A stretch of DNA of 34,140 nucleotides from positions 1 to 34,140 of the IMG/VR virus record IMGVR_UViG_3300048801_000029. The stretch is one strand, 5' to 3'. The translations under genes were made by a program, and so were the position numbers. This stretch comes from a virus (taxonomy: Duplodnaviria > Caudoviricetes). Of this stretch, positions 1 to 34,140 are shown piece after piece. The notes beneath the pieces were generated by a model that saw only the letters and a list, made by a program, of their open reading frames with translations, was not told the origin of the DNA and did no database searches. Each line of letters begins with the position of its first letter. The stretch's first letter is position 1.

Positions 1-220
1 AGCCGCCCGCCGGCGGCGTCGCGGCCCCGGACTTCGGCGGGCAGGGGATCGGCTTGGCATTGATCGTCGGGGCGATGGCGCAGGACGGGGCGGGCACAAG
101 GGTCGCGCCCTTGTCCTCGGCGGGCTGGCAGGCGGCGAGGGTGCCGAGGATGACGACGGCGCCGGCGAGGGCGCACACGGCGCCGACGGGCGCGATGGAT
201 GTCTTGCGGTTGGGTTTCAT
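1..220 (-). CDS. Small lipoprotein (runs off the window edge)
   Basis: Not in ORF track; translated by hand from ATG 220, which overlaps the RusA stop (ATGA): MKPNRKTSIAPVGAVCALAGAVVILGTLAACQPAEDKG... Basic N-terminus, hydrophobic stretch, lipobox LAAC. Confidence 0.7.
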   Translation of the reverse strand, partial: MKPNRKTSIAPVGAVCALAGAVVILGTLAACQPAEDKGATLVPAPSCAIAPTINAKPIPCPPKSGAATPPAGG

Positions 221-1154: not shown

Positions 1155-1646
1155 ATGGCTCACAAGATACCAGTGCCCAGCAACTTCGATGGGCTGGTAG
1201 CGATAGACCTGTCCGCCGACTTCCCCTCCGCACGGCCCGGGGAGAATGGCAGCGTCATCGTCCACACCGGCGCCTGCCGGCCGCCGGACGTCGCGGCCAT
1301 ACTGGAGCGCGACCTTGAGATGCTCCGGATGCACGCGCACATGATCACCGGTCACCTGGCCGAAGACGGCGATAGCTCGAGGGTGGGGGCGGTGGGCGTT
1401 GTGGTCGAACCGGGGCGAGAACTTCCGCTGATGCGATGCATGATGAAGTGTCGGGAAAGCTCCTATCCGAGCGAGGTGCGATGCACCTACGACGGAAATA
1501 TCATGTCCTGCGTCTACTCTCAGGACTGCGCCCACACCGGCGACTGGATTGAACTGATGGTCATACTCACAACCCCCGCACAACTGGCCCCCCACCTCCG
1601 CGCCCTCGTCCTGGTGGCCATCCGGAAGGCCGGCGAGGCTCTGTGA
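1155..1646 (+). CDS. Hypothetical protein
   Basis: ATG 1155 preceded by GAGAGGA; stop overlaps the primase start (GTGA). Confidence 0.65.
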   Translation: MAHKIPVPSNFDGLVAIDLSADFPSARPGENGSVIVHTGACRPPDVAAILERDLEMLRMHAHMITGHLAEDGDSSRVGAVGVVVEPGRELPLMRCMMKCRESSYPSEVRCTYDGNIMSCVYSQDCAHTGDWIELMVILTTPAQLAPHLRALVLVAIRKAGEAL

Positions 1647-4144
1647 GCGACTCCCCTCTGGCCGCGTTCGAGGAGTACACCGAACGCGGTTGGTTCGTGC
1701 ACCCCATTCACCGATGTGGGGACACGCGACTGGACGAGGAGACGGGTGAACTGGTCGCCATCGACAAGCGCCCCATCCTCCCCGGCTGGCAGCGCGCCTC
1801 GACCAACGACCCCGCCGACGTCCGGCGCTGGTTGGGCGAGCGCCGGTTCGCCGGGGCGAACATCGGCGTCCACGCCGAGCGCTCCGGGCTGGTGATCGTC
1901 GACCTGGATGTCCGTCCGGACAAGAACGGCATCGACTCCTGGCTGGAGTTGTCGCACGGTTGGGAGCCGGATACTTTCACGGTGCGGACGCCGACGGGCG
2001 GCCTGCACTACTACTTCGAGGCACCCGAGGGTGTGAGGTTGGCCAACACGGCCGGTAAGCTCGGCAAGGGGATCGACACCCGCTCGAGCGGCTACGCGGT
2101 GGCCCCCCCGTCGGTCACGACGGCCGGGGAGTACATGGTCACCAACTGGTCGGTGGGCAGGCTGGAACCCGCCCCCCGCTGGCTGGTCGCGAAGATCCTG
2201 GAACGGCGTACCGAGGTGGCCCGGCCGTTCGTCCCGGTGGTCCCGGGGGTGTCGGCGTCGGCGTCCTCGGTGCTGGCTCGGGTGAAGAATTTTGCCGCCG
2301 AACTGGCCGACTGCGGGGATGGCGCGAATGACCTCGCGATGCGTCTGGCGGTGCGGGCCGGTAACTACGTGGGCGCTGGCCAGATCGAACGGGCCGTGGC
2401 TGAGAGTGTCCTCATCGGCGCCATGGAGGGGTGGAAGTTCACCGGCACCAACACCCGGGCGTCCATGATCAGCACGATCCGGGAAAAAGTCGCACTGGGG
2501 ATGAAGACACCCCGGGCCTGGGAGGAGTTGCGTAGTCTGACCGGCGGCGTCGAACTGCCGGCCCCGCCCCCCGACGAACCTGAGGCGCCCCGAAGTTCCC
2601 GCGTCGTCACCGGCTGGAGTACGGACGACGGGCAGGCCCGCGAGATGCGCCGCCTGTTCCCCGGGTTGAGGTTCGCCGAGGCGGCTGACGGGGGGAAGCT
2701 GAATTGGTTCGCCTGGTCGGGTAAGCATTGGAGTCCGGTCGGCGAGTCGAAGCCGACCGGACTCATGCAGAACTGGTATCAGAGGCAGCTTGATGAACTC
2801 AACGCCCAGATCGCTGTCCTGGACCTGGAGTTAGAGGCGGCGAAGGATCGCGGCGCCGAACCGGATGAGGAGAAAGAGGGCAAGCTGGACGCCCTGGAGG
2901 CGCGCGCCAAGTCGGTGACCCGCTTCATGGGTGCTTCGAAGCAGTCCAACATCCTGAAGGCATGGCGGGTGATGGCGCGAGCCGCCATCGACGAGTTCGA
3001 TGCTCATCCAGAACTCCTGAACACCCCCGACGGCGTCGTGGACCTGCGGACCGGGGAGTTGTCTCCGCACGACCCGAGTCTGATGCTGACGAAGCTGACC
3101 CGTGGCCGCTACCGTCCCGGGTATCGTCATGCGGACTGGGACTCGGCCCTGGAGTCACTCCCGGACGGATTGCGGACGTACCTGCACATTCGTGTCGGCC
3201 AGGCCGTGACGGGCGAAGCATCGGCGAGTGACGACATGGTTCTTCTGGTCGGCGGCGGGTCGAATGGTAAGTCGGCCATTATGGATGATGGCCTGCTGCA
3301 CGCCCTGGGCGACTTCGCGATGTTGGCCAGCCCGAATCTGTTCACTAAGGCTGAGGGCGGGGCGTCGCCGGAGCGTGCCTCACTGCGGGGCGCCCGCTTG
3401 GTGCTGGCCGAGGAGTTGAGCGAAGAGGGTGTGTTCTCCACTGCCGAGGTGAAGCGCATAGTCGGCACGTCGACCATCTCGGCCCGCAAGTTGTACCAGG
3501 GGGATATGACGTTCACGGCGTCGCATACGATCTTCGTGAACACGAACCACCTGCCTCAGATCCGGGAGACGACGGACGGGGACTGGCGGCGTTACTGTCC
3601 GATCCCGTTCCCCTTCAAGTTCGTCGACGGCGATCCGGCCAACGCATACGAACGCCGGGGCGACGCCGACCTGAAGCCTCGGCTGCGTAACGGTAGGCAG
3701 GGGCAGCATGACGCGATGGTGACGTGGGCTGTCGAAGGGGCGATGAAGTACTTCGCCGACCCGGGTGCCCTGGGTCGGTCGCGGCGGCCCGTCGAGGTCG
3801 ATGCGGCGCTGGGGGCTTGGAGAATGAGCGCCGACCTGTTGCTGTCGTTCCTGGACGAGCGGGTCGTCGCCGACCGGGGTGCAGCCATTCCCCGTAAGGA
3901 TCTGTTCAAGGAGTTCAGTAGCTGGTTGGATGAGGGGCAGCATAAACGCTGGTCGTCATCGACGTTCTACCAGCGGTTCATCAAGCACCCGGCGTATGTG
4001 GAGATGGCCGTGGCTGAGGGGCAGACCCGGGATCACTCGATCATCAGTCGGCCCACGCCGGTGGGCGCGACCTGGTCGTCGAACGGATCTCCGCTTCCGG
4101 AGACGGTTCGGGTGTTCAGGACCATCCGGTTCAAGCCCTCCTGA
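1643..4144 (+). CDS. Bifunctional primase-polymerase (Prim-Pol) fused to D5/P4-type SF3 helicase
   Basis: N-terminal ANIG..LVIVDLD, TPTGGLHYYF and GIDTR motifs; D5_N-like LLNTPDGVVDLRTG; Walker A GGGSNGKS; TNHLP motif. Confidence 0.92.
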   Translation: MSDSPLAAFEEYTERGWFVHPIHRCGDTRLDEETGELVAIDKRPILPGWQRASTNDPADVRRWLGERRFAGANIGVHAERSGLVIVDLDVRPDKNGIDSWLELSHGWEPDTFTVRTPTGGLHYYFEAPEGVRLANTAGKLGKGIDTRSSGYAVAPPSVTTAGEYMVTNWSVGRLEPAPRWLVAKILERRTEVARPFVPVVPGVSASASSVLARVKNFAAELADCGDGANDLAMRLAVRAGNYVGAGQIERAVAESVLIGAMEGWKFTGTNTRASMISTIREKVALGMKTPRAWEELRSLTGGVELPAPPPDEPEAPRSSRVVTGWSTDDGQAREMRRLFPGLRFAEAADGGKLNWFAWSGKHWSPVGESKPTGLMQNWYQRQLDELNAQIAVLDLELEAAKDRGAEPDEEKEGKLDALEARAKSVTRFMGASKQSNILKAWRVMARAAIDEFDAHPELLNTPDGVVDLRTGELSPHDPSLMLTKLTRGRYRPGYRHADWDSALESLPDGLRTYLHIRVGQAVTGEASASDDMVLLVGGGSNGKSAIMDDGLLHALGDFAMLASPNLFTKAEGGASPERASLRGARLVLAEELSEEGVFSTAEVKRIVGTSTISARKLYQGDMTFTASHTIFVNTNHLPQIRETTDGDWRRYCPIPFPFKFVDGDPANAYERRGDADLKPRLRNGRQGQHDAMVTWAVEGAMKYFADPGALGRSRRPVEVDAALGAWRMSADLLLSFLDERVVADRGAAIPRKDLFKEFSSWLDEGQHKRWSSSTFYQRFIKHPAYVEMAVAEGQTRDHSIISRPTPVGATWSSNGSPLPETVRVFRTIRFKPS

Positions 4145-4154
4145 CTCCAGAAAC

Positions 4155-4195
4155 GACAGCACCCCCCGACCATCGTGAGGTCGGGGGGTGTTGTC
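4155..4195. terminator. Hairpin between convergent genes
   Basis: gacagcaccccccgacc-atcgtga-ggtcggggggtgttgtc, 17-bp stem with one G-U pair. Confidence 0.7.
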
Positions 4196-4228
4196 TCTCG
4201 GCCGCTGGGAGCCCTGCCGGGGCTGATC

Positions 4229-4768: not shown

Positions 4769-4799
4769 ATTTTCGTCTCCTTACCTGTTGGGTTTTGTC

Positions 4800-5021
4800 T
4801 TACTCTTCCGATGCTACCTCACTGTCCCAGGGGCCGTATGTCCCTGACAGCGCTAACATTGTCGCCTCCCTCGGGTCTTGTGGGTGGACGTGGAACTGCG
4901 CACATCCCCCACGGAGGCACAGGGTCCCCGCCGCCGTCCAGGTCGCACCCTTCCCATCGCTCGCCCACCTCGTACCGTAGGGGTGACGCGCCCGTTCCCC
5001 CTCCCCCTCGTTCCCGGTCAT
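4800..5021 (-). CDS. Hypothetical protein
   Basis: ATG 5021 overlaps the upstream stop (ATGA); 73 aa. Confidence 0.55.
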   Translation of the reverse strand: MTGNEGEGERARHPYGTRWASDGKGATWTAAGTLCLRGGCAQFHVHPQDPREATMLALSGTYGPWDSEVASEE

Positions 5022-5356
5022 TGTCCCGCCTCCACGTCGAGCACTTGGGCGTTGAGGACGTGCCTCATGCCCTCTACCGCCCACGCGTGCGTCTGCCCGC
5101 CCTCATCTGATCCCCAGCCACCGCCGGGGACGCACAGGACCCGCGTCCAGATCGGTTCGAGTCGCACCACCTCCGTGATTCCGCCCCGCTTGAGGGTGAG
5201 GGCCTTACCCCCCACCCCCAGTCCGTGAAGCTCCGTCGCCTCGACCACCCACCATGCGGCGGCCCCCGTAGCGGTGGCTCCCCAGCGGACCCAGTCGCCG
5301 ATCATGATGGCCGCGACTGAGCGGTACTCAATGAGTCGCTGACTGGGCCCGGTCAT
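5018..5356 (-). CDS. Hypothetical protein
   Basis: 112-aa ORF with RBS GGAAGGA; tiles the operon. Confidence 0.6.
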   Translation of the reverse strand: MTGPSQRLIEYRSVAAIMIGDWVRWGATATGAAAWWVVEATELHGLGVGGKALTLKRGGITEVVRLEPIWTRVLCVPGGGWGSDEGGQTHAWAVEGMRHVLNAQVLDVEAGQ

Positions 5357-5636
5357 TGAGTTCCTTCCCGATCTGTGAGTGGCCGATCTTCCATAGCGCC
5401 CCGTGACGCAAGACGTACGCGACGGTCGCCTTCCAGGGCTTGTCCTCGCCTGCCCGTTCCCAGCAGGCGACGAGGACGGTTGATCGTACGGCGACGGAGT
5501 CGATGAACGTCTCCCCTACCCGTGTGCGCGAATAGGTGATGTAGGGTTTCGGGTCCTCCGGGTGCGCCCGGAGGCGCCTCAGCAGCGCGAGGGCGGCGGG
5601 GGCGCACGGGTCCCCGGGGAGCAGAATCTTACTCAC
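5328..5636 (-). CDS. Hypothetical protein
   Basis: 102-aa ORF overlapping both neighbours; natural amino-acid composition. Confidence 0.6.
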   Translation of the reverse strand: MSKILLPGDPCAPAALALLRRLRAHPEDPKPYITYSRTRVGETFIDSVAVRSTVLVACWERAGEDKPWKATVAYVLRHGALWKIGHSQIGKELNDRAQSATH

Positions 5637-6186
5637 CTTCGCTCACCCATCCCATCCTGATTTCCGTCTGCCGCCAGGACAATGACAGCCGCCGATCCCT
5701 CTCCTGCTCCAGGCGGGCGACCGACTCAGCGCTGACCAGCATCTTGAAGTCCCGGTATCCGAGACCCCGGACGTCACGCACGTCGAGGCGCCCCGCCTTC
5801 CCCCAGCGGTAGATGGTCTTCAGGTCCACCCCCAGCCTGCTCGCCGCCTGCGTCTTCGTCATCCACGTGCTGGGGATCTTGCTGGGGTTCACTTGCCCTC
5901 CTCCTGTGTCAGTTTCCCTGATCGCCGAGTTGGTCGCGGTGACCTGCGTCGCCGCCGCCAGGTTCACCGCCTCATTCCGGTCAGCGTGCAAGTCGCTCAC
6001 ATTGATCGGTACCTGTTCGGTCATTGTCTCTTCCTTCGGCTTGGCGCCCCGACGAGCTGCCTCGCCGGTGCGGTGGTGGTGTGGGTAGAGGGCCGCGCGC
6101 TCGCCGCCAAGGCCCACGTCCGCGAGCGCCTTGCCGGCCTTCTCGGCGAGGGGCGCGATGTCCGGATACTTACTCAGGTCGATCAT
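5629..6186 (-). CDS. Helix-turn-helix DNA-binding protein (excisionase/MerR-like HTH); start ambiguous (6186, 6024 or 5892)
   Basis: WMTKTQAASRLGVDLKTIYRWGKAGRL HTH motif in the C-terminal half. Confidence 0.7.
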   Translation of the reverse strand: MIDLSKYPDIAPLAEKAGKALADVGLGGERAALYPHHHRTGEAARRGAKPKEETMTEQVPINVSDLHADRNEAVNLAAATQVTATNSAIRETDTGGGQVNPSKIPSTWMTKTQAASRLGVDLKTIYRWGKAGRLDVRDVRGLGYRDFKMLVSAESVARLEQERDRRLSLSWRQTEIRMGWVSEGE

Positions 6187-6220
6187 TGTGAATCCCCTTC
6201 ATTGCTGGGTTGAGGCCTCA

Positions 6221-6256
6221 GACTGTATCAGAGTGTCCGGCAGTTGTGATACAGTC
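6221..6256. promoter_or_regulatory. Symmetric divergent extended -10 promoters
   Basis: gactgtatca-N16-tgatacagtc. Each arm reads TG-A-TACAGT outward; the right box ends 6 nt before the helicase ATG. Confidence 0.65.
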
Positions 6257-6261
6257 CTGGC

Positions 6262-7959
6262 ATGACGAACGAGGTCCGGCTGCGGGACTACCAGAGGGCG
6301 GCGATTGATGGCATCCACCGCGCCTGGCGGGGTGAGCCTCGGGGCACGGGCACGGGTGTCGTCAACCGGGTCGCGGTGGCGCTGCCCACCGGAGCAGGTA
6401 AGACCGTCGTATTCTCGCACCCTGACCTGCGGGAGTCTGTGATCGGGACGGGGGCGCGGGGGCGTAGGATGCTCATCCTCGTGCACCGTGAGGAGCTGGC
6501 CGGCCAGACCATACAGAAGTTGCGCTCGATCGACCCGAGTGCCGTCGTCGGCAGGGTGCAGGCGGAGCATGATCAGGTTGACGCGAAGATTGTCGTTGCC
6601 TCCGTGCAGACCCTTGCCCGGAGGAGTCGCAGAGATCAGATCAAGGACGTCGGCCTGATTGTCGCCGACGAGGCGCACCATTACACGTCGAAGACTTACC
6701 TGGAGACGTTGACGCATTACGGCGCATTCCGTGGTATCCCGACGGTCGGCTTCAGCGCCACCTTGACCCGGTCGGATGACAGGAAGTTGGGCGACCTGTG
6801 GGAAGAGCTGGTGATCCGTAAGGACATTATTGAGGGTATCCGGGCGGGTTGGTTAGTTGATGTCCGGGGCAAGACTGTGGCCATTGAGGGGCTGGACCTG
6901 GCGAAGGTGCAGCGCACCCGGGGTGACTACGCTGACGGGGCGCTGGGTGCGGCCCTGCACGGCGCCCACGCGGCCGAGCAGGTTGCCGAGGCATACAAGT
7001 CGAGCGCCATGGACCGGCAGGGGGCCGCTTTCTGGCCGGATGTCGCCTCCGCCCAGGAGGGTGCGGAGGCGTTCAACTCCACCGGCATCCCCAGTGAGGT
7101 CGTCATCGGCGAGACGCCAACCGATGTGCGTCAAGCGATCTACGCCCGGACGCGCGCCGGGGTGACGCAGGTCATCCACTCGTGCATGGTCCTGACTGAG
7201 GGCTTCGACATGCCCCAGTTGGATTGCGCGGTGATCGCGCGACCAACACAGAATAACGCCCTGTACGTGCAGATGGTGGGGCGGGTGCTACGTCCCTGGC
7301 GGGCGCCCCGGCCGGGGTTCGGGGTGAAGCGTGACGCCCTCGTCCTGGATGTGGCTGGGGTCGCGGGGAAGCATAAGCTGGCTACCCTCGCCGACTTGTC
7401 TCCGAGCACGAAGCTGCCCCGCGAGGACCAGTCCCTGCTTGAGTCCGAGGATGAGCCCGAGGATGAGCCCGAGGACGACATCCCCACCGGCCCGATGTCG
7501 CCGAAGGCGAAACCCTTCGACTTCGGCGCTGTCACGTTGCGCGACGCCGACCTTTTCAGCGAATCTGCGGCGCTGTGGCAGCAGACCCCACGGGGAACCT
7601 GGTTTGTCTCCGTGGGGAGCTGGTTCGTGTTCCTGTGGCCGATGGGGGGCGGCCTGTGGACGGTCGGGCGGGTGGGGCAGAAGGGGGGACTCGCGTCGGC
7701 TGAACTCGTGCAGGGCGACCTCACTTTCGAGTGGGCGATGGCGCGGGCCGAACGGGAGGCTGACACCCTGGAGGGCATGCAGACGCTGACCTATGGGGTT
7801 GGCCGGAGCGCGTCGTGGCGGCAAGGCAGCCGGCCCGCGTCCGACGCCCAGAGGGGGTACGCTCGAAGCCTGGGCATCGCTTTCGACGCTGGGACGTCGA
7901 AGTCCCAACTGGCCGATATGATCACCACCAAGATTGCCGCCCGAGTCCTGGGCGGCTAA
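6262..7959 (+). CDS. Superfamily 2 DEAH-box helicase
   Basis: PTGAGKT, LVHREEL, DEAHH, SAT, LTEGFD and QMVGRVLR motifs. Confidence 0.92.
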   Translation: MTNEVRLRDYQRAAIDGIHRAWRGEPRGTGTGVVNRVAVALPTGAGKTVVFSHPDLRESVIGTGARGRRMLILVHREELAGQTIQKLRSIDPSAVVGRVQAEHDQVDAKIVVASVQTLARRSRRDQIKDVGLIVADEAHHYTSKTYLETLTHYGAFRGIPTVGFSATLTRSDDRKLGDLWEELVIRKDIIEGIRAGWLVDVRGKTVAIEGLDLAKVQRTRGDYADGALGAALHGAHAAEQVAEAYKSSAMDRQGAAFWPDVASAQEGAEAFNSTGIPSEVVIGETPTDVRQAIYARTRAGVTQVIHSCMVLTEGFDMPQLDCAVIARPTQNNALYVQMVGRVLRPWRAPRPGFGVKRDALVLDVAGVAGKHKLATLADLSPSTKLPREDQSLLESEDEPEDEPEDDIPTGPMSPKAKPFDFGAVTLRDADLFSESAALWQQTPRGTWFVSVGSWFVFLWPMGGGLWTVGRVGQKGGLASAELVQGDLTFEWAMARAEREADTLEGMQTLTYGVGRSASWRQGSRPASDAQRGYARSLGIAFDAGTSKSQLADMITTKIAARVLGG

Positions 7960-7979
7960 ACCCAACGAAAGGTAAGGCA

Positions 7980-8090
7980 ATGGATACTGTCGGACACTTC
8001 CCCCCACACGCGACGGGGTGTGAGGTCTGCGGACGCGCCCTCATCAACACGGACGGCAAGCCGTGCGACATCAATGGCAACGCCCGGTGA
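7980..8090 (+). CDS. 36-aa Cys-containing peptide
   Basis: MDTVGHFPPHATGCEVCGRALINTDGKPCDINGNAR. Upstream AAAGGTAAGG; stop overlaps the next GTG. Confidence 0.5.
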   Translation: MDTVGHFPPHATGCEVCGRALINTDGKPCDINGNAR

Positions 8091-9598
8091 GCGCCGGCGA
8101 CGGAATGGGCGACTTCGTCCTGCCCTCGCAGTTGAGTTCCCAGGGGCAGGGCAACCCGAGGACCGTGCCCCGCCCATCGAACGCGGGGTTCGTCCAGGGC
8201 GTCACCTTCGACCGTTGGGGCCGGTACCAGCTCCCCAACGGGGGCACGGGGGAGCTGGAGCCCTTCACCCGGGTCACGACCCTCGCGGGGATGGTGACCA
8301 GCGTTGAGGGCCTGCGGGTGTTCACGGAGCGCGGCATCGTCGAAGGTATGGGCCTGCGCCCTGACCTGCGGCAACTTGCTGCTAGTGACCCCAGCAGCAA
8401 GGAGGTCCAGGACAAGGTCCGGGGGGCTGCGAAGGAGGCGGCGAAGCTCAATGCTGCCGCGACCCGGGGAACGTCCCGGCACCGCCTGCTCGAACTGCAC
8501 CCACCGGGTACGCCGTGGCCGGATCATGTCGACCCTAATGACGAGGACGGCCAGGATCTGGCGGCGGCCCGGAGCCTGCTCACCGAGCTGCAAGTGAGCA
8601 TCCAGCACACCGAGCTCCTGGTCGCGAACCGGGTCAGCGGGTATGCCGGTCGGCTCGACTACCTGATCGAGGTCAGCGGCCAGTTGTACATCCTAGACCT
8701 GAAGACAGGGGCGAAGCTCCTGGACCCCGGCAAGCGCACCACCATTGGCGCACAGTTGGCGCTCTACGGCTACTGCGATTCGGCTTTCATCCCGGGTACG
8801 GGTTGGGTCCAGGCGCCCATCATCAACCGCCAGGTCGGCTACGTCCTGAGTGTCTGTGACGGTGTGGCCGCCCTGTACGAGGTGGACTTGGAGGACGGCT
8901 GGAAGGTGGCGAGGATCGCCCTCGCCCTGCATAAGGCACGTAAGGATTCGGTGAGCTTCACAGAGGTTCGTTCGCTGGGTGGGGGCGCGGCGACCTATGT
9001 CGAGCAGGCCTCCCAGTTCCGCGAGACCCTCGCTCAGGCGTCAGCCGATCTGCTGGCGACGCCCGATGCCGCCGAGCCGGAAGTGGGTCGGAAGCGGAAG
9101 CGGCGCGCCTGCTCCGCATGCCGGGAAGTCGGCCACTTCGCGAAGAACTGCCCGACGCTCGTCGACGACACCGACGACGTGAACCTCACCCCCGCCGCCA
9201 CGTTGAGGGAAGATGAGGAGGAGACGGCGGAGGAGACGGCGGAGGAGACGGAAGCGGAGCGCACGTCTCGGCTTCGACTGCTCGACCCCTGCGAATGCGC
9301 ACCGGAGGAGCGCACCGGGTTCATCGACCTCGACGACATCAACGGGGTCCCACGGTGCAGGACTTGCGTCGGCATCGCCCACTGGGTGATGGGGGCCTGG
9401 ACGGTGGAGGAGGTTGCGGGCACTGTCCCTGACGTGGTCGAGGTGCAGTTGCGCAACGCCAGGTCACAGGAGGAACTGGGGCGGATCTGGCAGGTGGAGG
9501 CGGCCGCCGGCCGCTGGGAGGACAAGCACACCGAACTGGGTAAGCAGTTGCGTGAGGTGCTCCCGCTGATGGACAAGGATGTCGCGCCCCGGGTGTAG
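8087..9598 (+). CDS. PD-(D/E)XK exonuclease (RecB/Cas4-like) with C-terminal CCHC zinc knuckle
   Basis: RGTSRH, E-x8-YAGRLD, ILDLKTG and QLALY motifs; CSACREVGHFAKNC. GTG 8087 is coupled to the upstream stop; ATG 8105 is an alternative. Confidence 0.8.
   Translation: MSAGDGMGDFVLPSQLSSQGQGNPRTVPRPSNAGFVQGVTFDRWGRYQLPNGGTGELEPFTRVTTLAGMVTSVEGLRVFTERGIVEGMGLRPDLRQLAASDPSSKEVQDKVRGAAKEAAKLNAAATRGTSRHRLLELHPPGTPWPDHVDPNDEDGQDLAAARSLLTELQVSIQHTELLVANRVSGYAGRLDYLIEVSGQLYILDLKTGAKLLDPGKRTTIGAQLALYGYCDSAFIPGTGWVQAPIINRQVGYVLSVCDGVAALYEVDLEDGWKVARIALALHKARKDSVSFTEVRSLGGGAATYVEQASQFRETLAQASADLLATPDAAEPEVGRKRKRRACSACREVGHFAKNCPTLVDDTDDVNLTPAATLREDEEETAEETAEETEAERTSRLRLLDPCECAPEERTGFIDLDDINGVPRCRTCVGIAHWVMGAWTVEEVAGTVPDVVEVQLRNARSQEELGRIWQVEAAAGRWEDKHTELGKQLREVLPLMDKDVAPRV
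9218..9251 (+). repeat. 12-bp in-frame tandem repeat (EETA)
   Basis: gaggagacggcg x2 plus gaggagacgg. Confidence 0.85.
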
Positions 9599-9656
9599 TC
9601 TCGGGGATGCGAGTGCAAGTCGAACCGACAACAACAATAGAGAATCGGGAACCGTG

Positions 9657-10271
9657 ATGACTGAACTGTCGATCGAGGTCGAGGACTTCCAGAACCCGTC
9701 CGAACTGGCCAGCGCTGGGAGCGGGAACTACCCCGCCCTGTCTCAGCTGCGGGGCCGCCTGCTGTGGGTGAAGCCGATCCTGCGCAAGGACAACCAGGCC
9801 AGCATCCAACGCCCCGAACCGCACACCGTCATGGTGTGTGACATGGCGTTCCTGGACGGGCCAGCCATCGCGCACCGCCTCGACAAGGACGGCGACATCC
9901 ACGCTACCTTCGATGAGCCCGTCAACCCGGGAGACGTGATCCGGGGCATGTACTTCTCCCAGGGCTGGTTCGTGAGTCGCCTGAAGGATCGCGCCGGCGA
10001 CCCCACGTTCCCCGGACTGGTTGGAATCCTGGGTAAGGCGCCGGCGCGTACCGGCCAGATGTGGGTCCTGACGGACCCGTCCCCCGCCCAGATGACCCAA
10101 CTGCGGACGTGGGCTGCCTGGCAGCGCAAGAAGGACGCCGAGGAAGCTGCGGCGAAGGCGAGCGCGGCACCCGACTGGGCGAGCGCTGGCCCCGTCAGCA
10201 CGGGCCCGGCAGTGTCCGCACAGTTGCCGCCGTGGATGAGCGGCACCGACGCCGTGGCCCCGCCGTTCTGA
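9657..10271 (+). CDS. Hypothetical protein, possibly ssDNA-binding
   Basis: Follows the exonuclease; flexible Ala/Pro tail ending PPF, as in SSB C-termini. Function is inference. Confidence 0.55.
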   Translation: MTELSIEVEDFQNPSELASAGSGNYPALSQLRGRLLWVKPILRKDNQASIQRPEPHTVMVCDMAFLDGPAIAHRLDKDGDIHATFDEPVNPGDVIRGMYFSQGWFVSRLKDRAGDPTFPGLVGILGKAPARTGQMWVLTDPSPAQMTQLRTWAAWQRKKDAEEAAAKASAAPDWASAGPVSTGPAVSAQLPPWMSGTDAVAPPF

Positions 10272-10283
10272 TCTTCCCCTGAA

Positions 10284-10317
10284 GGGGAGGGGGCGAACCT
10301 GATCTCGCCCCCTCCCC
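10284..10317 (+). terminator. GC-rich hairpin
   Basis: ggggagggggcga-acctgatc-tcgccccctcccc, 13-bp perfect stem just after the stop codon; no U tract. Confidence 0.55.
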
Positions 10318-10344
10318 GCACATAACCCAACGAAGGAGTAGGCA

Positions 10345-10716
10345 ATGGGCAATGAGACGAAGAGCGGACTAACCGTCCCGGAGCGTTTTGTGGGCGAAGA
10401 GGTCGTTCCCCGGGTGGTAGCACTGTCCCAGCGCCTCGGCGTGGTCGAGGTGAAACTAGACGAGGTCGCCCAGCAGACCCGGGAGCACCTCAGCAACTCT
10501 GCCGAGATCAACGCGGCGGAGTTCGCGAAGTTGCACGACAGGATCGACCTGCTGGAGGACGGCGACGAGGACGACGAGGATTGCGACTGCTGCGACATTG
10601 TCGACGAGATCGACCGGAACGCCACCCGGGCCCGGATCGTCCTCGACTACGCCCTGGCCGTCAGTGCCGTCGGCGCGACCCTCGGCGTCGCCTCGTCCGC
10701 CTGGTGGTTGCGGTGA
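10345..10716 (+). CDS. Hypothetical coiled-coil protein with C-terminal transmembrane helix
   Basis: RBS AAGGAG; acidic stretch followed by CDCC; hydrophobic C-terminus. Confidence 0.7.
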   Translation: MGNETKSGLTVPERFVGEEVVPRVVALSQRLGVVEVKLDEVAQQTREHLSNSAEINAAEFAKLHDRIDLLEDGDEDDEDCDCCDIVDEIDRNATRARIVLDYALAVSAVGATLGVASSAWWLR

Positions 10717-10937
10717 GTGTCCCCCTGCCCGAGGGGTGGCGGGAATCGATGGTGTTCCCCCTGCCCCAGACGCCCGAGGTGCCGACGCTGATCCAGTTCG
10801 GCCATACGGGCAGTGAGTGGCCAATGGAGTGGCATTCGTTCGGCGACAGTTGCGAGCGATGTTCCCAGTACCGACTCTGGGCGGCGGGGGCGACCCTACC
10901 CATTCAGCTCGTCGACTATGACGAAGATCCCCGGTAG
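10713..10937 (+). CDS. Hypothetical protein
   Basis: GTG 10713 overlaps the upstream stop (GTGA); 74 aa with CERC. Confidence 0.55.
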   Translation: MSVPLPEGWRESMVFPLPQTPEVPTLIQFGHTGSEWPMEWHSFGDSCERCSQYRLWAAGATLPIQLVDYDEDPR

Positions 10938-11223
10938 CGGGCGTTATCTGGGTGCGTACCAGCGTGCACGCGCCCAGATGCGCACCGCCCGACCACAGCC
11001 CTGCGGCATCTGCGGCAGGGCTATTGACTATTCCCTCACCAAGCCCGACCCGGGCAGCTTCACCGTCGACCATATTCGCCCCATCGCCAGGGGTGGTGAG
11101 GACGTCCCCGACAACTACCGGCCCGCGCACCTGGGGTGTAACTCCAGGCGCAGAGATGCCCCGGCAGGGAAGCCTGAGCTTCGCCTGCCGGGGCTCCGTA
11201 AGAACTCCCGCGACTGGGGGTAG
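10918..11223 (+). CDS. HNH endonuclease (HK97 gp74-like)
   Basis: CGICG...TVDHIRPIARGG...N..PAHLGCN; ATG 10918. Confidence 0.88.
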   Translation: MTKIPGSGRYLGAYQRARAQMRTARPQPCGICGRAIDYSLTKPDPGSFTVDHIRPIARGGEDVPDNYRPAHLGCNSRRRDAPAGKPELRLPGLRKNSRDWG

Positions 11224-11288
11224 GGCGGATCTGACTACGTCAGATCATGGGGTAGGGCGGATCTGACTACGTCAGATCATGGGGTAGG
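11217..11288. repeat. 32-bp tandem repeat (2.25 copies) with palindromic core
   Basis: ggggtagggcggatctgactacgtcagatcat at 11217-11248 and 11249-11280, plus partial ggggtagg. Core is GATCTGAC-tac-GTCAGATC. Confidence 0.95.
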
Positions 11289-12780: not shown

Positions 12781-13022
12781 TACGCACCTCCCCGGCGCTG
12801 GCAGCGGCAGGGCCGACCAACCAAAAGAGCGAGCCACATAGGACGATGGCGATGACGGTCAGCCGGGATATCAGCATTGGAACCCCATCCCCACTCCGAA
12901 GTAACAATGCCCGCCGGATCAGTTCCGGCATCAAGGGCGGTCGGGGTGGACGGCTGGCGTGCCGTATGGGGAGGCTCCTGGGGGCGCTGGGCTCTGAGGA
13001 AAGAGTGGATGATTGGTCTCAT
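12780..13022 (-). CDS. Hypothetical protein (uncertain)
   Basis: Tiles exactly between whiB (ATGA overlap) and the next start; composition is unconvincing. Confidence 0.35.
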   Translation of the reverse strand: MRPIIHSFLRAQRPQEPPHTARQPSTPTALDAGTDPAGIVTSEWGWGSNADIPADRHRHRPMWLALLVGRPCRCQRRGGA

Positions 13023-13519
13023 GAGTCCGAGGTTACCTTATCTGCATGGGTACTGTCTAGCGGATCTTTCAGTACCCTGTCCCGCTGCCTGCGGTAGGCG
13101 AGGCGGTCCTGCCGGCGCGCCTTCGCCGCGTCTTTCTCTGCGGAGGTTCGGGGCCGACCGCGCGGCTTGAAGGTCCGCCCGATCTCCCCGTCCCTGCCCT
13201 CCGTCCAGATGGGCTCCTCGTACCCTCCGGCGAGGCGCGCCCGGTCGTACAGCCTCCAGCGCTGATAGGGCGTGAACCCGCCGGCGACGCCGCTGCGCCC
13301 ACCCGTCGGGCCCTTGCCCTCGGCGGCCATGGTGAAACGCAGGCACTGCACCCGGACGGGGCACGACCAGCACGTGCCTACCGCCCAACAGGTGGCGCAG
13401 GCGCCCTCGTCGTGCGCTCCGTCCTTCTTCTGCTCCACGTGGCCGTAGGCGACGAGGTGCATCTCCTCCTCGAAGCCGATGCACCGGGCCCGTGTCAGCC
13501 AACTGCCGGCGAGGCTCAC
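13019..13519 (-). CDS. whiB: WhiB-family Fe-S transcription regulator
   Basis: W...ARC...CWSCPVRVQCL...GVAGGFTPYQR; GTG 13519 coupled to the upstream stop; C-terminal PRGRPR. Confidence 0.8.
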   Translation of the reverse strand: MSLAGSWLTRARCIGFEEEMHLVAYGHVEQKKDGAHDEGACATCWAVGTCWSCPVRVQCLRFTMAAEGKGPTGGRSGVAGGFTPYQRWRLYDRARLAGGYEEPIWTEGRDGEIGRTFKPRGRPRTSAEKDAAKARRQDRLAYRRQRDRVLKDPLDSTHADKVTSDS

Positions 13520-13686
13520 GGGTGACACCTCGGGCCCCGGCCCCGGTAGTCGTCGGTGCTCATGCACGTGTGCCCCGGCCTGGATGGGGGCGCCTCCTTG
13601 GCCGGCTCGCACCCGGCGAGCAGTAGGCCCGCGACGGCGAGCAGGGCGAACGCACCCCACTCAGTGTTGATCATGTTGGGTTTCAT
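13516..13686 (-). CDS. 56-aa lipoprotein
   Basis: Below the ORF-track cutoff; MKPNMINTEWGAFALLAVAGLLLAGCEPAKEAPPSRPGHTCMSTDDYRGRGPRCHP. RBS GAAGGA; lipobox LAGC. Confidence 0.75.
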   Translation of the reverse strand: MKPNMINTEWGAFALLAVAGLLLAGCEPAKEAPPSRPGHTCMSTDDYRGRGPRCHP

Positions 13687-24554: not shown

Positions 24555-26198
24555 TCATCCTTCCATTGTTGGCCAGGTGACGGCCGTCCAGCCGGCTGAA
24601 GCTACCGCCGGGTCCGCTACCAGGGTGCTGCCCGTAATCGAACGCCCAGCCATCACTACCACGTCAATGTCGGTGTTCGCGGTAGCCGTCGGCACCAGCG
24701 CCCACGACATTGTCCCAGTTGTCTGGTCATACAGAGCATAGGCGTAACTGCTCGCCGCGATGATCGAGTTAGCGGTCACATAGTTCGCGGCGGACGCGAG
24801 GGCGCCGGCATTCGCGGCTATCACACTGGTCGCTGTTCCACGTGAAACAACGCCAACCGTCAGCGCCCCGGAGGCCGTGATCAGGCTGCTCGCCGTGACC
24901 GTGTTCGCGGAGTTCGCGGTCGCCGAGGCGACGGCCGTGACTGCACTGGTCGCGTTGATCCCCGGGCTGCTCGCCGAAGCCGTAACGCCCCCGACCACGG
25001 TGATGTTGCTCCCGGCGGCCGTCACCGAAGTCGCGTTCGCGCTCGCCGAGGCGCCGGCGGTGATGGTGCTGCTGGCCGTGACGGAGTTCGCGCTGTTCGC
25101 CGTGGCGCTGGAGGCGGCCGTGACCACACTGCTCGCGGTGACGGAGGTCGCCACGTTCGCCGTGGCGCTGGAGGCGACACCGATCGAACTGGTCGCGGTG
25201 ACGGAGTTCGCGGAGCTGGAGGTCGCCGAGGAGGAAGCGGTGATGGTGCTGCTCGCCGTAGCGGAACTGGAGACGTTCGCGCCGGCGTTGGCGTTGGCGG
25301 TGATGGTGCTGGAGGCGTCGCCGAAGACGGCCCCGCCGGCGCCGGGGTCCTCCAGGCCAAGCCCGAACCTGGCCCCGAAGGTGTTGACCACCCACCAGCG
25401 GGCCCGGTTGTCGCGCCGGAACGGCTGGAAGCTGGCCCCGGTCAGCGTTGCCGGGCCGATCCGATTCGTGAACTGGCCGTGCCCCAGTTCGCGGGTGGTG
25501 CGGTAGGCGCGGTAGCCGGGTCCCCGCCGGCGGTTACCGACCGCGCCACCCGTCTTACCGGAGACGGTCACCTCAATGGCCGCCCACGTCATATCGACGG
25601 CCGCCGTGCCGCCCGCGTCGAGGTTCGCCGTCACCGACGTACCCGAATCCGCCCCACCCCGCCGAGCACCGGCCATCGCGGACATGAACGTGGCCGAGTG
25701 GAAAGTACTGATCGGGTTCAGGTCACTGCTCGCCGGGGCGCCCGGCGCCGTCCAGTCAGTGCACCCCACCACATACAGCGAGTAGTTGCCCGTAGCCGTG
25801 AACAGGGCGGGGCTGGAATTGTTCGTGGTCGTGTACCCGGCACCGGTAGCGCCGACGGCGACGACCTCGTTCACCGTGTACACGACGAAAGAGTGCTGGT
25901 TACCGGCCGTGAAGCCGGACGTCAGGGTGCTGGTTACGGTGACGGCACCGGTGGCGGCCTTCGACATCGTCCAGATGGTTGTCGCGCCGTTACCGGTGCC
26001 ATTCGTACCTGGATCGGAGTGGGCGCGCTCAGTCCACGTCCCACCGTCGGAACTGGTGACGGTTCCCGTGACGGACGCTGCGGCATTCGAGTCGACGTTG
26101 ACGACGGCGACGACCAGGCTGCCGGCCAACACCACGGAGGACGCGCTGGTTAGGGCCGCCGTCGTCCCGGAGGTTTGGCCGACCTGCTGGAACGACAT
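24555..26198 (-). CDS. Virion fibre-like protein with 20-aa Ala/Ser/Thr repeats
   Basis: Beta-rich N-domain, Arg-rich linker, about ten ASSxITAxxxAxAxxxxxVT repeats. Confidence 0.7.
   Translation of the reverse strand: MSFQQVGQTSGTTAALTSASSVVLAGSLVVAVVNVDSNAAASVTGTVTSSDGGTWTERAHSDPGTNGTGNGATTIWTMSKAATGAVTVTSTLTSGFTAGNQHSFVVYTVNEVVAVGATGAGYTTTNNSSPALFTATGNYSLYVVGCTDWTAPGAPASSDLNPISTFHSATFMSAMAGARRGGADSGTSVTANLDAGGTAAVDMTWAAIEVTVSGKTGGAVGNRRRGPGYRAYRTTRELGHGQFTNRIGPATLTGASFQPFRRDNRARWWVVNTFGARFGLGLEDPGAGGAVFGDASSTITANANAGANVSSSATASSTITASSSATSSSANSVTATSSIGVASSATANVATSVTASSVVTAASSATANSANSVTASSTITAGASASANATSVTAAGSNITVVGGVTASASSPGINATSAVTAVASATANSANTVTASSLITASGALTVGVVSRGTATSVIAANAGALASAANYVTANSIIAASSYAYALYDQTTGTMSWALVPTATANTDIDVVVMAGRSITGSTLVADPAVASAGWTAVTWPTMEG
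24834..24849. promoter_or_regulatory. parS site
   Basis: TGTTCCACGTGAAACA, an exact match to the chromosomal parS consensus TGTTNCACGTGAAACA. Confidence 0.8.
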
Positions 26199-26218
26199 GC
26201 ATCACCCCCTCGGGCTAC

Positions 26219-26680
26219 TTATTCGTCCCACATGACGGAGCACTGGAAGGTGCCGGTGGTCGCGCCAGACGCGTTCGCGTTGACGATGCACAGCCCCGCC
26301 GAAGTGGATGCCGCCACAACTATGGGGTTGTAGAAGTTCCACACCACGGACCCGCCGGCGGTGACGGCCATCGCGCCCGACCCCAGCCACGCCGTCGTCG
26401 TGAACGTCGGAGCCACCGACAGGACCGAATCGAACGTTCCCACAGCGGCCGCATCGGACGGGTCGAACGGCAACCCCGCCAAGGTGGTCGTGGCCGTGCC
26501 GATGGCCGTTGACCTGGCCAGGTAGAACGCGGGGGCCGTCGTCGGGGCGACGGCGATACTCACGATGATCTGCGTGATGGCCAGTCGGGTCGTGGTCGCC
26601 GTCGGGCGCAGCTGGAAGTAGCAGGTGTTCGCCGTGTTCACGCCGGCCTTCGACGCGCCCGCCCCATACGTCCCGGCCAT
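26219..26680 (-). CDS. Putative virion structural protein
   Basis: Thr/Ala-rich beta protein ending WDE; tiles the operon. Confidence 0.65.
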   Translation of the reverse strand: MAGTYGAGASKAGVNTANTCYFQLRPTATTTRLAITQIIVSIAVAPTTAPAFYLARSTAIGTATTTLAGLPFDPSDAAAVGTFDSVLSVAPTFTTTAWLGSGAMAVTAGGSVVWNFYNPIVVAASTSAGLCIVNANASGATTGTFQCSVMWDE

Positions 26681-26681
26681 G

Positions 26682-27059
26682 TCAGGCCGCGATCGGGGTG
26701 AACGACAGGGTCAGCGCGGACACTGTCAGGGTCGAACCGGAGATGACGGGGACGGCGGCCGACAAGGCTAACGACCATTCCATGTTCCCAGCGGTGGACG
26801 CATCCCAGAGGGACAGGTGGGTGACGGTCTCGGTCGCCGTCATCGTCCAAGACGCCAGGGCTGACATCGCCATCGACCCCGCCGATGGGGCAGCCCAGGT
26901 GACGCCGTTGCGGGTTACCATGGTCGAGGCGTTCGCCGCACCAGCCGCACCCGGGTCACCGAGGTGCAGCTTCGCGTACACGGTGATGCCGGTGTAGGTG
27001 GTGCCCCGGAAGACACCCAGCAACTCATTCGCGTGGGTGGCCGAGATGCCGATGGTCAC
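26682..27059 (-). CDS. Putative virion structural protein
   Basis: LHLGDPG...VTHLSLWDASTAGN pattern, as I recall from actinophage minor structural proteins. Confidence 0.7.
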   Translation of the reverse strand: MTIGISATHANELLGVFRGTTYTGITVYAKLHLGDPGAAGAANASTMVTRNGVTWAAPSAGSMAMSALASWTMTATETVTHLSLWDASTAGNMEWSLALSAAVPVISGSTLTVSALTLSFTPIAA

Positions 27060-27277
27060 GGGGTCCCTCCAGTGGCGGCCTGCGCCTGATGCTCGATGTA
27101 GCTGACGATGAACTCGTCCGGGAACGGCTGCCCCGGATCGAATACGAAGTCGGGGGCGTGCTGGGCGAGGAACTCGGACCCGCCCGGGACATCACGAATC
27201 GGGGGGTGCACAACGGTCACGACGGCGGACCCGTACAACGGGAGCGCCGGGACCGGCTCGGGCAGCTGCTCGGTCAT
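27056..27277 (-). CDS. Hypothetical protein
   Basis: Coupled to neighbours at both ends; 73 aa. Confidence 0.65.
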   Translation of the reverse strand: MTEQLPEPVPALPLYGSAVVTVVHPPIRDVPGGSEFLAQHAPDFVFDPGQPFPDEFIVSYIEHQAQAATGGTP

Positions 27278-27489
27278 GAGTTGGGATCTCCAGCCTTACG
27301 GGGCCGACCACGGCGGACCGGGCCATCCTGCGGTTCCGGCTCATACTTCGCGAGTTCATTGCGCACCAATTGGGCGCGCTCCTCACGGTTCAGGTGATGT
27401 ACCGACCAGTCAAGCAGGCCGGCCAGCTCCACCCGAAGGGCCGCCACATAGGCGGCCCTCGAGTTCGGCTCGGTAGCCTCGGCGGTCAT
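27274..27489 (-). CDS. Small protein with AT-hook-like RRGRPRK
   Basis: ATG 27489 (TGATG overlap); MTAEATEPNSRAAYVAALRVEL... Confidence 0.65.
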   Translation of the reverse strand: MTAEATEPNSRAAYVAALRVELAGLLDWSVHHLNREERAQLVRNELAKYEPEPQDGPVRRGRPRKAGDPNS

Positions 27490-28049
27490 CAGTTGACGAC
27501 CACGTACGGGATGGTCGCAGCGGCCGCGAAGGTGACGCCGGTCGTCGGCAGGGTGGTCTGCGCCGAACCGTAGGTCGCGGCCATCGCCTTGTCCGTGGTG
27601 AGCGGCTGGGCCGAACCAGCCAGAGCGAGGGTCATGCCGATCAGGGTCGGGGCGGTGGTCGCGACAACCAGGATACCGACGTAGTAGACGCCGGCCTGGG
27701 GCACCACGTAGGGGGCGGTCATGCTGAACGACTTCACGGTGTTCGCCGCCCACGCCGCCGTGGTCGCGTCCGCCGAGGCGGCCAGCAGGACACCGGCGGC
27801 CGAGTACAACCCAACCAGCTGATTCAGCGGGGTGACGGCGGCGGTCGCGCCGGACTTCAGGCTGACGGTCGAAACGACATCACCCTCAACGAGGGCGATG
27901 GCGGCCAGCTTCAGGACACCGGTCGCCAGGGCGGCCGAGTCGGAGCCGAGGCCGAGACGGGGGATGTTCCGCCGGTCAGTCCCCGCCGGGGACGCGGCCA
28001 GTAGCCATTCGGCGTTCTTGGTCTGGTAGTGCGAGTTCGTGAGAGGCAC
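27489..28049 (-). CDS. Putative capsid decoration protein
   Basis: Directly after the capsid gene; RBS AAGGAG; Ala/Thr-rich beta protein. Confidence 0.6.
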   Translation of the reverse strand: MPLTNSHYQTKNAEWLLAASPAGTDRRNIPRLGLGSDSAALATGVLKLAAIALVEGDVVSTVSLKSGATAAVTPLNQLVGLYSAAGVLLAASADATTAAWAANTVKSFSMTAPYVVPQAGVYYVGILVVATTAPTLIGMTLALAGSAQPLTTDKAMAATYGSAQTTLPTTGVTFAAAATIPYVVVN

Positions 28050-28072
28050 TTCAGGTTCTCCTTCGGGAGTAC

Positions 28073-28110
28073 GGTCCGGGCGACGGCGGGGGCACGTCGT
28101 CGCCCGGACC
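28073..28110 (-). terminator. Hairpin after major capsid gene
   Basis: ggtccgggcgacggcg-ggggca-cgtcgtcgcccggacc, 16-bp near-perfect stem. Confidence 0.65.
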
Positions 28111-28123
28111 TGTCAGGTAAGTC

Positions 28124-29566
28124 TTAGAAACCGGTCGGGGAGACGGTGCCGGTGCCGGTGATGGCGGAAAGGGACTTCGGGAACCGGTTGTTGATCATGG
28201 CGGCGTAGTTGTACAACTGCACCCTGACCTGCAATGTTCCGGAAAGGACCTCGGTCAGCACGCGGGTCCGGAGGGCACCCTCAAAAAGATAGGTGTCCTT
28301 GAACTTCGCGGCCAGAACATAATCCTGGTTGGTCGCGTAGGTGGACGGCATGTTCGCGTCGATGTAGATCGGGGTACCCAACACCTCGCCAACCAGGCCC
28401 TCAGCGTTCAGGTCCAACTGGCCAGCCGAGTTGAAGCCGGGAGCGCCACGGGGGACGACCAGCGGCCGGTTCGCGGTGTCCAACTGGGTAGCCAAGAAGT
28501 ACCAGCGTTGCGGCGTCATGGTGATGGCGTCGATCATCTGGAAACGCTGACGGGCCACGAGGGATGCGGCCTTACCGAAGTAGGGGTACATCTCCGGCAG
28601 GGTCGGGGAACCCGAGGAGTAGGTGACGGTGTTGCCGCTGGCGATGGCGGTGGTGAAGATACCAGTCAGGATGTCCGAGGTGCCGTTGGCGTAGATGGCC
28701 AGCTGGTCGATCTTCTGCGTGTACGCGGAAGCGAGGTCCTGAGCCATCACCGAGTCGAAGCCGGCGGACACGGGGGACTGCTCCAGCAACTGGAGGGCGA
28801 TGTCGACCTGGCCGGCCACGGTGGCGACGGGGCTGGACACGAACGCGTCGGTCGGGTCCTGCGAGGTCACAGCGCCATTGTCAGTCTGCAAGCCAACGGC
28901 GGTGCCGATGGACAACTTCGGCAGGTTGATGCTGTCGGTGCCGCCCGGCAAGTCGAAGTGAGTCATCCGGTCCGCGACGGTGCGACCTGCACGCAGGTAG
29001 GGGACGAACTCATCGACCAGCCACAGTGGTGGGACGAAGTAGCCGCCGGACCCGTCGACGCGGGAGGCGTTCGCGCGAGCCTCGCCGGCCGCGCGCTTGT
29101 GGGCGCCGCCCCGGAAGTCATTCGCGATGTCCTGCTTCGGCACGTTGGCCAACATGTTCGCGTGGTCGTTGAGCCGGCGCTGAGCGTCGAAACCCTCAGG
29201 GGAACCGGCCTGGCGGGTGGCGGTGATCAGGTCCCTGAAGTAGGACCGCTCGAACTGGGACTCGCGGGTGTAGACGAGGTCCTTGCCTTGCACGTAGCCC
29301 GACCCGGTGCGGCGCTGACCTTCGGCGTCTTCGGTCTGCTGGGCGCGGGCGGCGGAGGCGTCAACGGCGGCGCGGCGCCGGTCGTCGGCCTCAAGGTCGG
29401 CGATACGCGCATCCAACTGGTCGCGCTGCGCCCGGAAGGCGGTGGCCTTCGCGGTCTCATCGTCTGTGAGGGTGGCGCGGTTCTCGGAAGCGACGAAGTT
29501 CTCCAAGGCGCGCAACGACGCCTCAACTTCGGCCAGGGCCTTCCGGGCCAATTCCAGGGGGTTCAC
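28124..29566 (-). CDS. HK97-fold major capsid protein with N-terminal delta domain
   Basis: Coiled-coil N-terminus; GGYFVPP, QLLEQS and LGTPIYID motifs; RBS AGGAG. Confidence 0.92.
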   Translation of the reverse strand: MNPLELARKALAEVEASLRALENFVASENRATLTDDETAKATAFRAQRDQLDARIADLEADDRRRAAVDASAARAQQTEDAEGQRRTGSGYVQGKDLVYTRESQFERSYFRDLITATRQAGSPEGFDAQRRLNDHANMLANVPKQDIANDFRGGAHKRAAGEARANASRVDGSGGYFVPPLWLVDEFVPYLRAGRTVADRMTHFDLPGGTDSINLPKLSIGTAVGLQTDNGAVTSQDPTDAFVSSPVATVAGQVDIALQLLEQSPVSAGFDSVMAQDLASAYTQKIDQLAIYANGTSDILTGIFTTAIASGNTVTYSSGSPTLPEMYPYFGKAASLVARQRFQMIDAITMTPQRWYFLATQLDTANRPLVVPRGAPGFNSAGQLDLNAEGLVGEVLGTPIYIDANMPSTYATNQDYVLAAKFKDTYLFEGALRTRVLTEVLSGTLQVRVQLYNYAAMINNRFPKSLSAITGTGTVSPTGF

Positions 29567-29664
29567 AAGGGGCTCCTAGTTGAGATGGGACTGCACTCTA
29601 ACCTCAGGTAGACCCGTAGTGAACTCATCGCTGGAGTTCGGCTACTGTCCGGCGTTCGGTGTTA

Positions 29665-30642
29665 CTACCGGGATCGTACCGCACGATCCTGGATCAGGCG
29701 CAAGTAATCCAGCGACATCCCAGAACGGTCCTCGGGAGCGGGGGATTCTTCGCCCAACTCCTCGACCTCGCCCGGTTCCTCCACCTCGCCCGGCTCATCA
29801 CAGTCCGGGTTCGGCAGGCCGAGGATCTGGGCGAGCAACGGTTGGGCGGCGTCCAGGGCCACATCGGCGGCGCTGATCAGACCAAGCACACCGGCCAGGG
29901 CGGCCTTCGCCTCCTCGCTGACACCACCGGACTTCGTTTCACGTGAAACCCACGCACTCACGAACTCGGCCGCGCCGGACTCGATGATGGCCTGGCCGGA
30001 GCGCAACCCGATCGTCCCCGTTGTCGCCGGGTTCGCCGGGTGAGTCACCACGGACACGTCCCCGCCGTTCATGTCCAGCTCGGTGATGGTGCGCTCCGTG
30101 TAGTCGCCGCTCCAGTCCTGCCGCGTCACCCAGAAGGCGAAGCTCATGGCGTCCAACTCGCCCCGCTCAACGGCGGACCGGATGATGTGCACGTCCGCCC
30201 TAGTCGGGTCCATGCGCGCCTTCATCGTCCCGTCGGGGTAAACGTCCAGCGAACCAGCCGTCTTCGTCCTGGCTAAGGGTGTGCCGTCCCAGTTGTGATT
30301 CAGCACGAACTGGATGTCGGCCGCCTCATTCAGGGTCTTCGCCAGGGCGCCGGGGCTGATCCGCTCCACGTAGGAGTCGAAGAAGTCCTGCACCGTGTAC
30401 GGGTGGCCGAGGACAGTGAACGCACCCGTGAACTCAACGGACTCGCCGCCCGTACCCGATGGTACGCTTCGGGCCGTCAACGCGCCGATGTCGCCCATGG
30501 GCGCAGACAGTACGTTGACACCGGACCCCTGGCGCATGACGGCGCGAAGGAAACGCGGGTCACCCGCCATCGCGCCACGCTGCAACATGGCGGGGGTGAG
30601 GATTCCCCCGCGACGAACCTTGACTCTCGCCACCTTACCCAC
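29665..30642 (-). CDS. HK97-family prohead protease
   Basis: ERISPGAL, LNHNW, PLART, MSFAF and DVSVVTHPANP motifs. Confidence 0.9.
   Translation of the reverse strand: MGKVARVKVRRGGILTPAMLQRGAMAGDPRFLRAVMRQGSGVNVLSAPMGDIGALTARSVPSGTGGESVEFTGAFTVLGHPYTVQDFFDSYVERISPGALAKTLNEAADIQFVLNHNWDGTPLARTKTAGSLDVYPDGTMKARMDPTRADVHIIRSAVERGELDAMSFAFWVTRQDWSGDYTERTITELDMNGGDVSVVTHPANPATTGTIGLRSGQAIIESGAAEFVSAWVSRETKSGGVSEEAKAALAGVLGLISAADVALDAAQPLLAQILGLPNPDCDEPGEVEEPGEVEELGEESPAPEDRSGMSLDYLRLIQDRAVRSR
29936..29949. promoter_or_regulatory. parS site
   Basis: GTTTCACGTGAAAC, the perfect palindrome of the Streptomyces/Mycobacterium parS consensus. Confidence 0.82.
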
Positions 30643-34101: not shown

Positions 34102-34140
34102 GTCACTTTTCGTCACCCTATGGAGAAAAAAAAGGTTTAG

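Follow-up and report, generated by a model that had tools for sequence, protein, structure and literature searches.

Genome Organization

The window, a stretch of 34,140 bases, belongs to an uncultured phage from peat metagenomes. Its genes encode a terminase, portal, protease, HK97 capsid, tail tube, tape measure and GH25 lysin, together with WhiB-like, HNH, exonuclease, helicase, primase-polymerase and RusA proteins. Several HTH proteins are encoded as well. The features on which the following sections depend are:

1643..4144, plus strand: primase-polymerase/D5 helicase, the phage's own replication gene (Pfam, PHROG)
1812..1846, minus strand: CRISPR protospacer, matched by a spacer in run X1 with 1 mismatch, AAC adjoining
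13019..13660, minus strand: divergent WhiB-like regulator (PF02467, E = 0.002, a weak match below the cut-off; phrog_472, E = 2e-6)
24555..26198, minus strand: head-module repeat protein of 547 aa (Ala/Ser/Thr repeats of ~20 residues); bears parS site 1
24834..24849, unstranded: parS site 1, TGTTCCACGTGAAACA, 16/16 to the chromosomal consensus TGTTNCACGTGAAACA
29665..30642, minus strand: HK97-type prohead protease (PF04586, Peptidase_S78, E = 2e-16, residues 88-215; phrog_80)
29936..29949, unstranded: parS site 2, GTTTCACGTGAAAC, a perfect 14-bp palindrome, 14/14 to the core

The right end of the window, position 34140, is common to a near-identical fragment (L001) and a contig from run X4, and lies 180 bases upstream of the small terminase gene; it is therefore likely to be a genome end. 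On the left side, contigs from runs X1 and X2 both continue 968 bases beyond position 1, and identical capsid, terminase, helicase and lysin proteins are recorded on a 38,759-bp contig. Thus, 1 to 4.6 kb of the genome lies outside the window. A lower figure of <1 kb was dropped, since the four proteins map to the 38,759-bp contig, and another record of that length (L261) was set aside as a different phage, its capsid identity being just 36%. No stretch in viral_contigs matched a 24-nt pattern taken from the left end. CheckV puts the completeness of the record at 34%, while the same tool gives 42, 70 and 100% for three repeat-ended relatives. The leftmost ORF (2-295, minus strand) is open-ended and continues into the missing DNA; it has a hydrophobic stretch ending in LAAC, which we take to resemble a lipoprotein signal.

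Two parS Sites in the Late Operon

The first-pass annotation had reported two parS palindromes of the host chromosomal type in this DNA. Both were confirmed at the positions listed above, with 0/100 shuffles reaching the counts, and both fit the consensus core and have exact copies in actinomycete chromosomes. Both palindromes are, by sequence, real chromosomal-type parS sites, and ParB is predicted to bind them. They lie 5.1 kb apart within the late operon. On the minus strand, site 1 reads GTT TCA CGT GGA ACA, encoding VSRGT at residues 451-455 of ORF 24555-26198, and site 2 reads GTT TCA CGT GAA ACG, encoding VSRET at residues 232-236 of ORF 29665-30642. The region of site 1 recurs with 0 differences in two other peat runs (X5 record 19 and X6 record 27), as does that of site 2 in X6 record 31. 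Site 2 is also present in X4 record 13, where the single difference, at position 30460, falls beyond the site. Since both sites are unchanged in contigs from other peat runs, assembly error is ruled out for both. The evidence leaves out runs X8-X18, in which the shares were small.

The genes that carry the sites had been described as fibre and protease genes. The protease assignment is confirmed by the Peptidase_S78 match, and site 2 falls downstream of this catalytic-domain match. The fibre assignment is not confirmed: ORF 24555-26198, a repeat protein, has no family match in Pfam or PHROG and one weak homologue. From its position, it is likely to be a virion protein.

Chance Occurrence and Codon Context

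With Markov models (orders 0-4) fitted to the window (66% GC), the probability of at least two matches to GTTNCACGTGAAAC was 6e-8 to 2e-7. Under the loosest definition, two sites that each deviate from the palindrome by at most one base, it was 1e-6 to 5e-6. Among 420 palindromes of equal half-site composition (parS included), parS alone had two matches in the window. These values bear out the earlier claim that two sites in 34 kb are unlikely to arise by chance, with P about 1e-7 for two consensus cores. In a collection of 250,000 windows, ~0.03 such windows would be expected by chance under the strict definition and ~1 under the loose one; chance is therefore unlikely, yet not nil.

The sites also run counter to the surrounding codon bias, as had been noted from the sequence. 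In each gene, the site coincides with the longest stretch of A/T-ending codons (6 codons at site 1 and 4 codons at site 2), whereas A/T-ending codons average 16-17% in the two genes. Given the peptide, the probability of the codon choice was 3.3e-5 for site 1 and 1.3e-4 for site 2, and the parS spelling was used in none of the six VSR[EG]T peptides obtained when 213 loci of relatives were translated in six frames. Within the repeat protein, site 1 stands in place of the repeat-unit consensus ANSVT (the terminal motif is ANSVT in two other units and ANTVT in a third), and it provides the only Arg in a stretch of 205 residues. The segment of the protease at site 2 is poorly conserved, with a mean identity among 16 relatives of 0.08 for residues 221-230 and 0.22 for residues 231-240. 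Judged from these patterns, both sites look like DNA-level edits in places where the proteins tolerate change.

Partial scans of IMG/VR gave estimates of ~8400 stretches with the 14-mer, ~2700 with the 16-mer and ~290 with one control palindrome, a ~29-fold excess of the 14-mer, counts in which some stretches may be host origin regions. Across 31 loci from these scans with a GC content of 58% or more, 17 of the 44 distinct sites lay within ORFs of gene-like codon use. A Pfam search of 54 of the 119 ORFs picked from 14 of these GC-rich parS loci returned terminase, portal, coat or tail-tube genes in four loci (L002, L026, L052 and L053) and no ParA or ParB. A 392-aa ORF near a terminase (L052:9999-11177) holds three parS sites, and a 116-kb GC-rich viral contig has 12 exact 16-mers in ~13 kb (L542:6001-10972; L542-L544).

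The sites might nevertheless have arisen by chance, or be relics without function. The look-elsewhere effect over 250,000 windows is large and parS is conserved in no relative found (see below), which both speak for such an origin. It would leave unexplained, however, the low probability of a consensus-compatible core given above, the anti-bias codons at both sites, the excess over the control palindrome in IMG/VR and the same placement in phage phi29. We consider it highly improbable.

Relatives and Integrase Genes

Apart from L001 (99.98%), the nearest relatives have ~45-56% capsid identity. No closer ones were recovered with a capsid query, which returned just L001, or with a primase query, which returned one match at 28%, and a search of four peat runs at 80% likeness found the same phage throughout and no diverged strains. 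Among 213 loci related by capsid, which total 2.66 Mb with some redundancy between collections, none contained parS within one mismatch, and 3 contained it within two mismatches. Likewise, parS was absent from all 33 whole virus records of relatives, which comprised L346 and 32 viral loci chosen by length from 80. The conservation of the palindromes in relatives, which had been proposed as a check on their function, was thus not found in either set, a result that is uninformative at such capsid identities. Relatives with terminal repeats measure 37.4-38.5 kb. The closest cultured match of the primase-helicase is Microbacterium phage OscarSo, which has no parS and whose annotation lists no integrase or parAB.

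The phage had also been described as having no visible integrase or ParAB. For the 34,140 bases of the window this is correct: a six-frame search found no tyrosine integrase, serine recombinase, resolvase, ParB or ParA, the PF13614 and PF02195 profiles had no match in the six frames, and the ORFs that were scanned included no RepA, no ParA and no clear CI-type repressor. The statement does not extend to the whole genome, of which up to 4.6 kb lies outside the window. In the three closest mapped relatives, the integrase gene is located 5-8 kb past the minor-tail gene. The matching slot lies inside this contig and is occupied by HNH, exonuclease and small genes, with no integrase. Since the slot is empty of an integrase but the genome is incomplete, the absence of an integrase from the entire phage is likely, not proven.

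Integrases are common among the relatives, being present in 20 of the 33 (tyrosine integrase in 17 and serine recombinase in 3 others). The combination of parS without integrase here and integrase without parS in the relatives fits a situation in which parS stands in for integration, although the contrast sets one lineage against related negatives and is not in itself a demonstration of conservation. Alternatively, this might be an integrating temperate phage with its integrase in the missing 4.6 kb, in which parS would be of use only to the circle after excision or to a prophage close to the origin. The frequency of integrases in the relatives and the 38,759-bp contig with its four identical proteins are consistent with such a phage, but the slot used by the relatives is covered and has no integrase, and the integrase-bearing relatives are all without parS. 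We therefore regard an integrating phage as very unlikely.

Probable Host

The capsid relatives in named genomes (53 loci) come from Actinomycetota, and the host is therefore likely to be an actinobacterium. Among named genomes, Dermatophilaceae and Nanopelagicales MAG bins contain the closest capsids, and the host may not be a spore-former. The divergent WhiB-like gene, to the extent that its profile matches can be relied upon, also points to an actinobacterial host, and its product (13019-13660) could touch host septation or sporulation control.

The perfect parS palindrome was found in all five complete actinomycete genomes searched, and a GTTCC variant in two of the five, where it was clustered; a Streptomyces example has 20 parS sites within 170 kb. 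Four of five MAGs contained a parS site, while the reversed-pattern control gave 0. The tested chromosomes of the likely host group carry 2-20 parS sites each.

The spacer from run X1 that matches the protospacer at 1812..1846 sits on an 89-bp contig and is flanked on both sides by the same 27-nt repeat end. The repeat is presumably of type I-E, by its appearance. No exact match to it was found in 401 genomes of the class, 301 Streptosporangiales or 151 relatives of the best hit, which are overlapping samples, and the nearest array-like pair had 2 mismatches.

Comparison with phi29 and Other Partition Systems

Host-type parS sites are carried by phage phi29, for which the primary study is reportedly that of Meijer et al. 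2005. The phi29 record contains five sites within two mismatches, located in gp10, gp12, gp15 and gene 17, with one just after gp16. Four of the five have the same 16-mer as site 1 of the peat phage. Four of the five lie within genes, including the late genes for the connector (gp10), appendage (gp12) and endolysin (gp15), as do both sites in the peat phage. The peptides encoded at the phi29 sites are VSRGT or VSRGI, and VSRGT, which is also the peptide at site 1, occurs in both gp10 and gp15. No par or integrase gene is annotated in phi29; in the peat phage, none was found in the 34,140 bases of an incomplete genome. According to PMC2731898, phi29 has five parS sites through which Spo0J segregates the genome into the prespore, and its lytic cycle is suppressed through Spo0A boxes. 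The presence of parS in structural genes, which the first-pass annotation had presented as a surprise, is thus an anatomy already published for phi29, with the same 16-mer in late genes (PMC2731898). Phage Nf is grouped with phi29, as having host-type parS sites read by host Spo0J/ParB for spore entrapment. By analogy, the peat phage may work like phi29, which it resembles in the sequence and placement of parS.

The two phages are otherwise unrelated. Unlike phi29, the peat phage has an HK97-type head, a tape-measure tail and a primase-polymerase, it carries two sites rather than five, and its relatives mostly integrate. To our knowledge, the likely actinobacterial host has no Spo0A. In a scan for counterparts of the 0A boxes of phi29, TGTCGAA occurs 8 times in the window against 3.2 expected, a number reached by 2/100 shuffles, and its copies are scattered. 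The BldD consensus has 0 matches in the window. These two scans provided no convincing counterpart to the lytic-arrest boxes of phi29. A search of titles and abstracts, in a collection with few subscription papers, yielded literature on host-type parS in phages just for phi29-like phages and no actinophage case, and neither parS nor Spo0J occurs as a whole word in PMC3714127. Genome surveys of parS could already list phage sites in their supplements.

In actinobacterial chromosomal ParABS systems, the sites are the same, whereas the peat phage carries them without an adjoining parAB. Actinophages that partition instead of integrating, as we propose here, are represented by the mycobacteriophages whose extrachromosomal prophages have a parABS (PMC7157519). 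Those phages encode ParA and ParB themselves and have partition repeats distinct from the host site, with the difference that the peat phage has the host palindrome and no par gene is seen. PMC7022226 gives the chromosomal parS consensus, which ParB binds, as TGTTNCACGTGAAACA and the M. smegmatis site as GTTTCACGTGAAAC. In Streptomyces, ParA and ParB anchor a chromosome to the tip of the hypha and also target new hyphae (PMC5157956), and chromosomes are likewise targeted by these proteins to tips and spores.

A Model for Persistence

That the phage makes use of host ParB, as suggested from the first inspection of the sequence, is still the best reading, based on the match to the consensus, the placement against codon bias and the parallel with phi29. 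In our model, host ParB would load onto the phage DNA at both parS sites in the late genes, lytic growth would stall and the phage genome would stay non-integrated, and host ParA would then carry this DNA into daughter cells, hyphal tips or spores. The model supposes a host from the actinobacterial group, ParB binding at the two sites, a stalled non-integrated state and a benefit to the phage. On balance, we favor such transport of non-integrated phage DNA by host ParB/ParA through division or sporulation, with somewhat better than even confidence.

A stable plasmid prophage would be a related arrangement, in which a regulated low-copy episome relies on host ParB alone, or on host ParB with its own ParA/ParB-like gene outside the window. 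Such an episome would agree with the several HTH proteins and the lack of an integrase in 34 kb, and unstable plasmids are stabilized by parAB with a single parS (PMC7022226). However, RepA, ParA and a clear CI-type repressor were all missing from the ORFs scanned, and OscarSo, with its related primase-helicase, has no parS and no annotated integrase or parAB. A plasmid prophage is, in our judgment, unlikely.

The sites could also act during the lytic cycle, if ParB positions the replicated DNA, is drawn off the chromosome by titration, or spreads and thereby reduces late transcription. Both sites are indeed in the late operon, 5.1 kb apart, and many copies of the phage would be expected to outnumber the 2-20 chromosomal sites of the host. 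In addition, a parS site near a promoter can repress that promoter (PMC7022226). In phi29, however, the same anatomy serves segregation, and repression is brought about by Spo0A (PMC2731898), and a sigma-70 consensus scan, which is a weak test for actinobacteria, showed no promoter-like site near either parS. This makes a lytic-cycle role rather improbable.

If host ParB does carry the phage DNA, as we favor, a strategy known from the phi29-like Bacillus phages would extend to an unrelated phage of actinobacteria. A wider claim, which we put forward tentatively and consider doubtful at present, is that this lineage of integrating actinophages swapped its integrase for two host centromeres of 14-16 bp recoded within virion genes and persists, non-integrated, as a passenger of ParABS in a host lacking Spo0A. 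Taken with the thousands of viral contigs that bear parS, such sites would then provide a widespread third route of persistence rather than a peculiarity of phi29. Carriage by host ParB, if true, would also mean that the lack of integrase and par genes no longer marks a phage as strictly lytic, since 14 bp within a gene would be enough for inheritance, and lifestyle assignments in soil and peat viromes would be affected.

Other Features of the Window

Upstream of the primase operon, a 65-nt inverted repeat (857-921 and 959-1023; 85% complementary) surrounds an A/T-rich spacer, and the region 857-1023 is a candidate replication origin or divergent promoter region. At 11217-11288, there are two exact 32-bp tandem copies and a partial third, each containing an 8-3-8 inverted repeat. 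They are located just after HNH, where plus- and minus-strand genes converge, and are possibly a bidirectional terminator or an operator pair. The primase, helicase, exonuclease and HNH genes (1643-11223) are opposed to the terminase, whereas in the relative G022 the primase, HNH and terminase are co-oriented and HNH adjoins the terminase. The early arm looks inverted relative to G022, with the junction at the tandem repeat.
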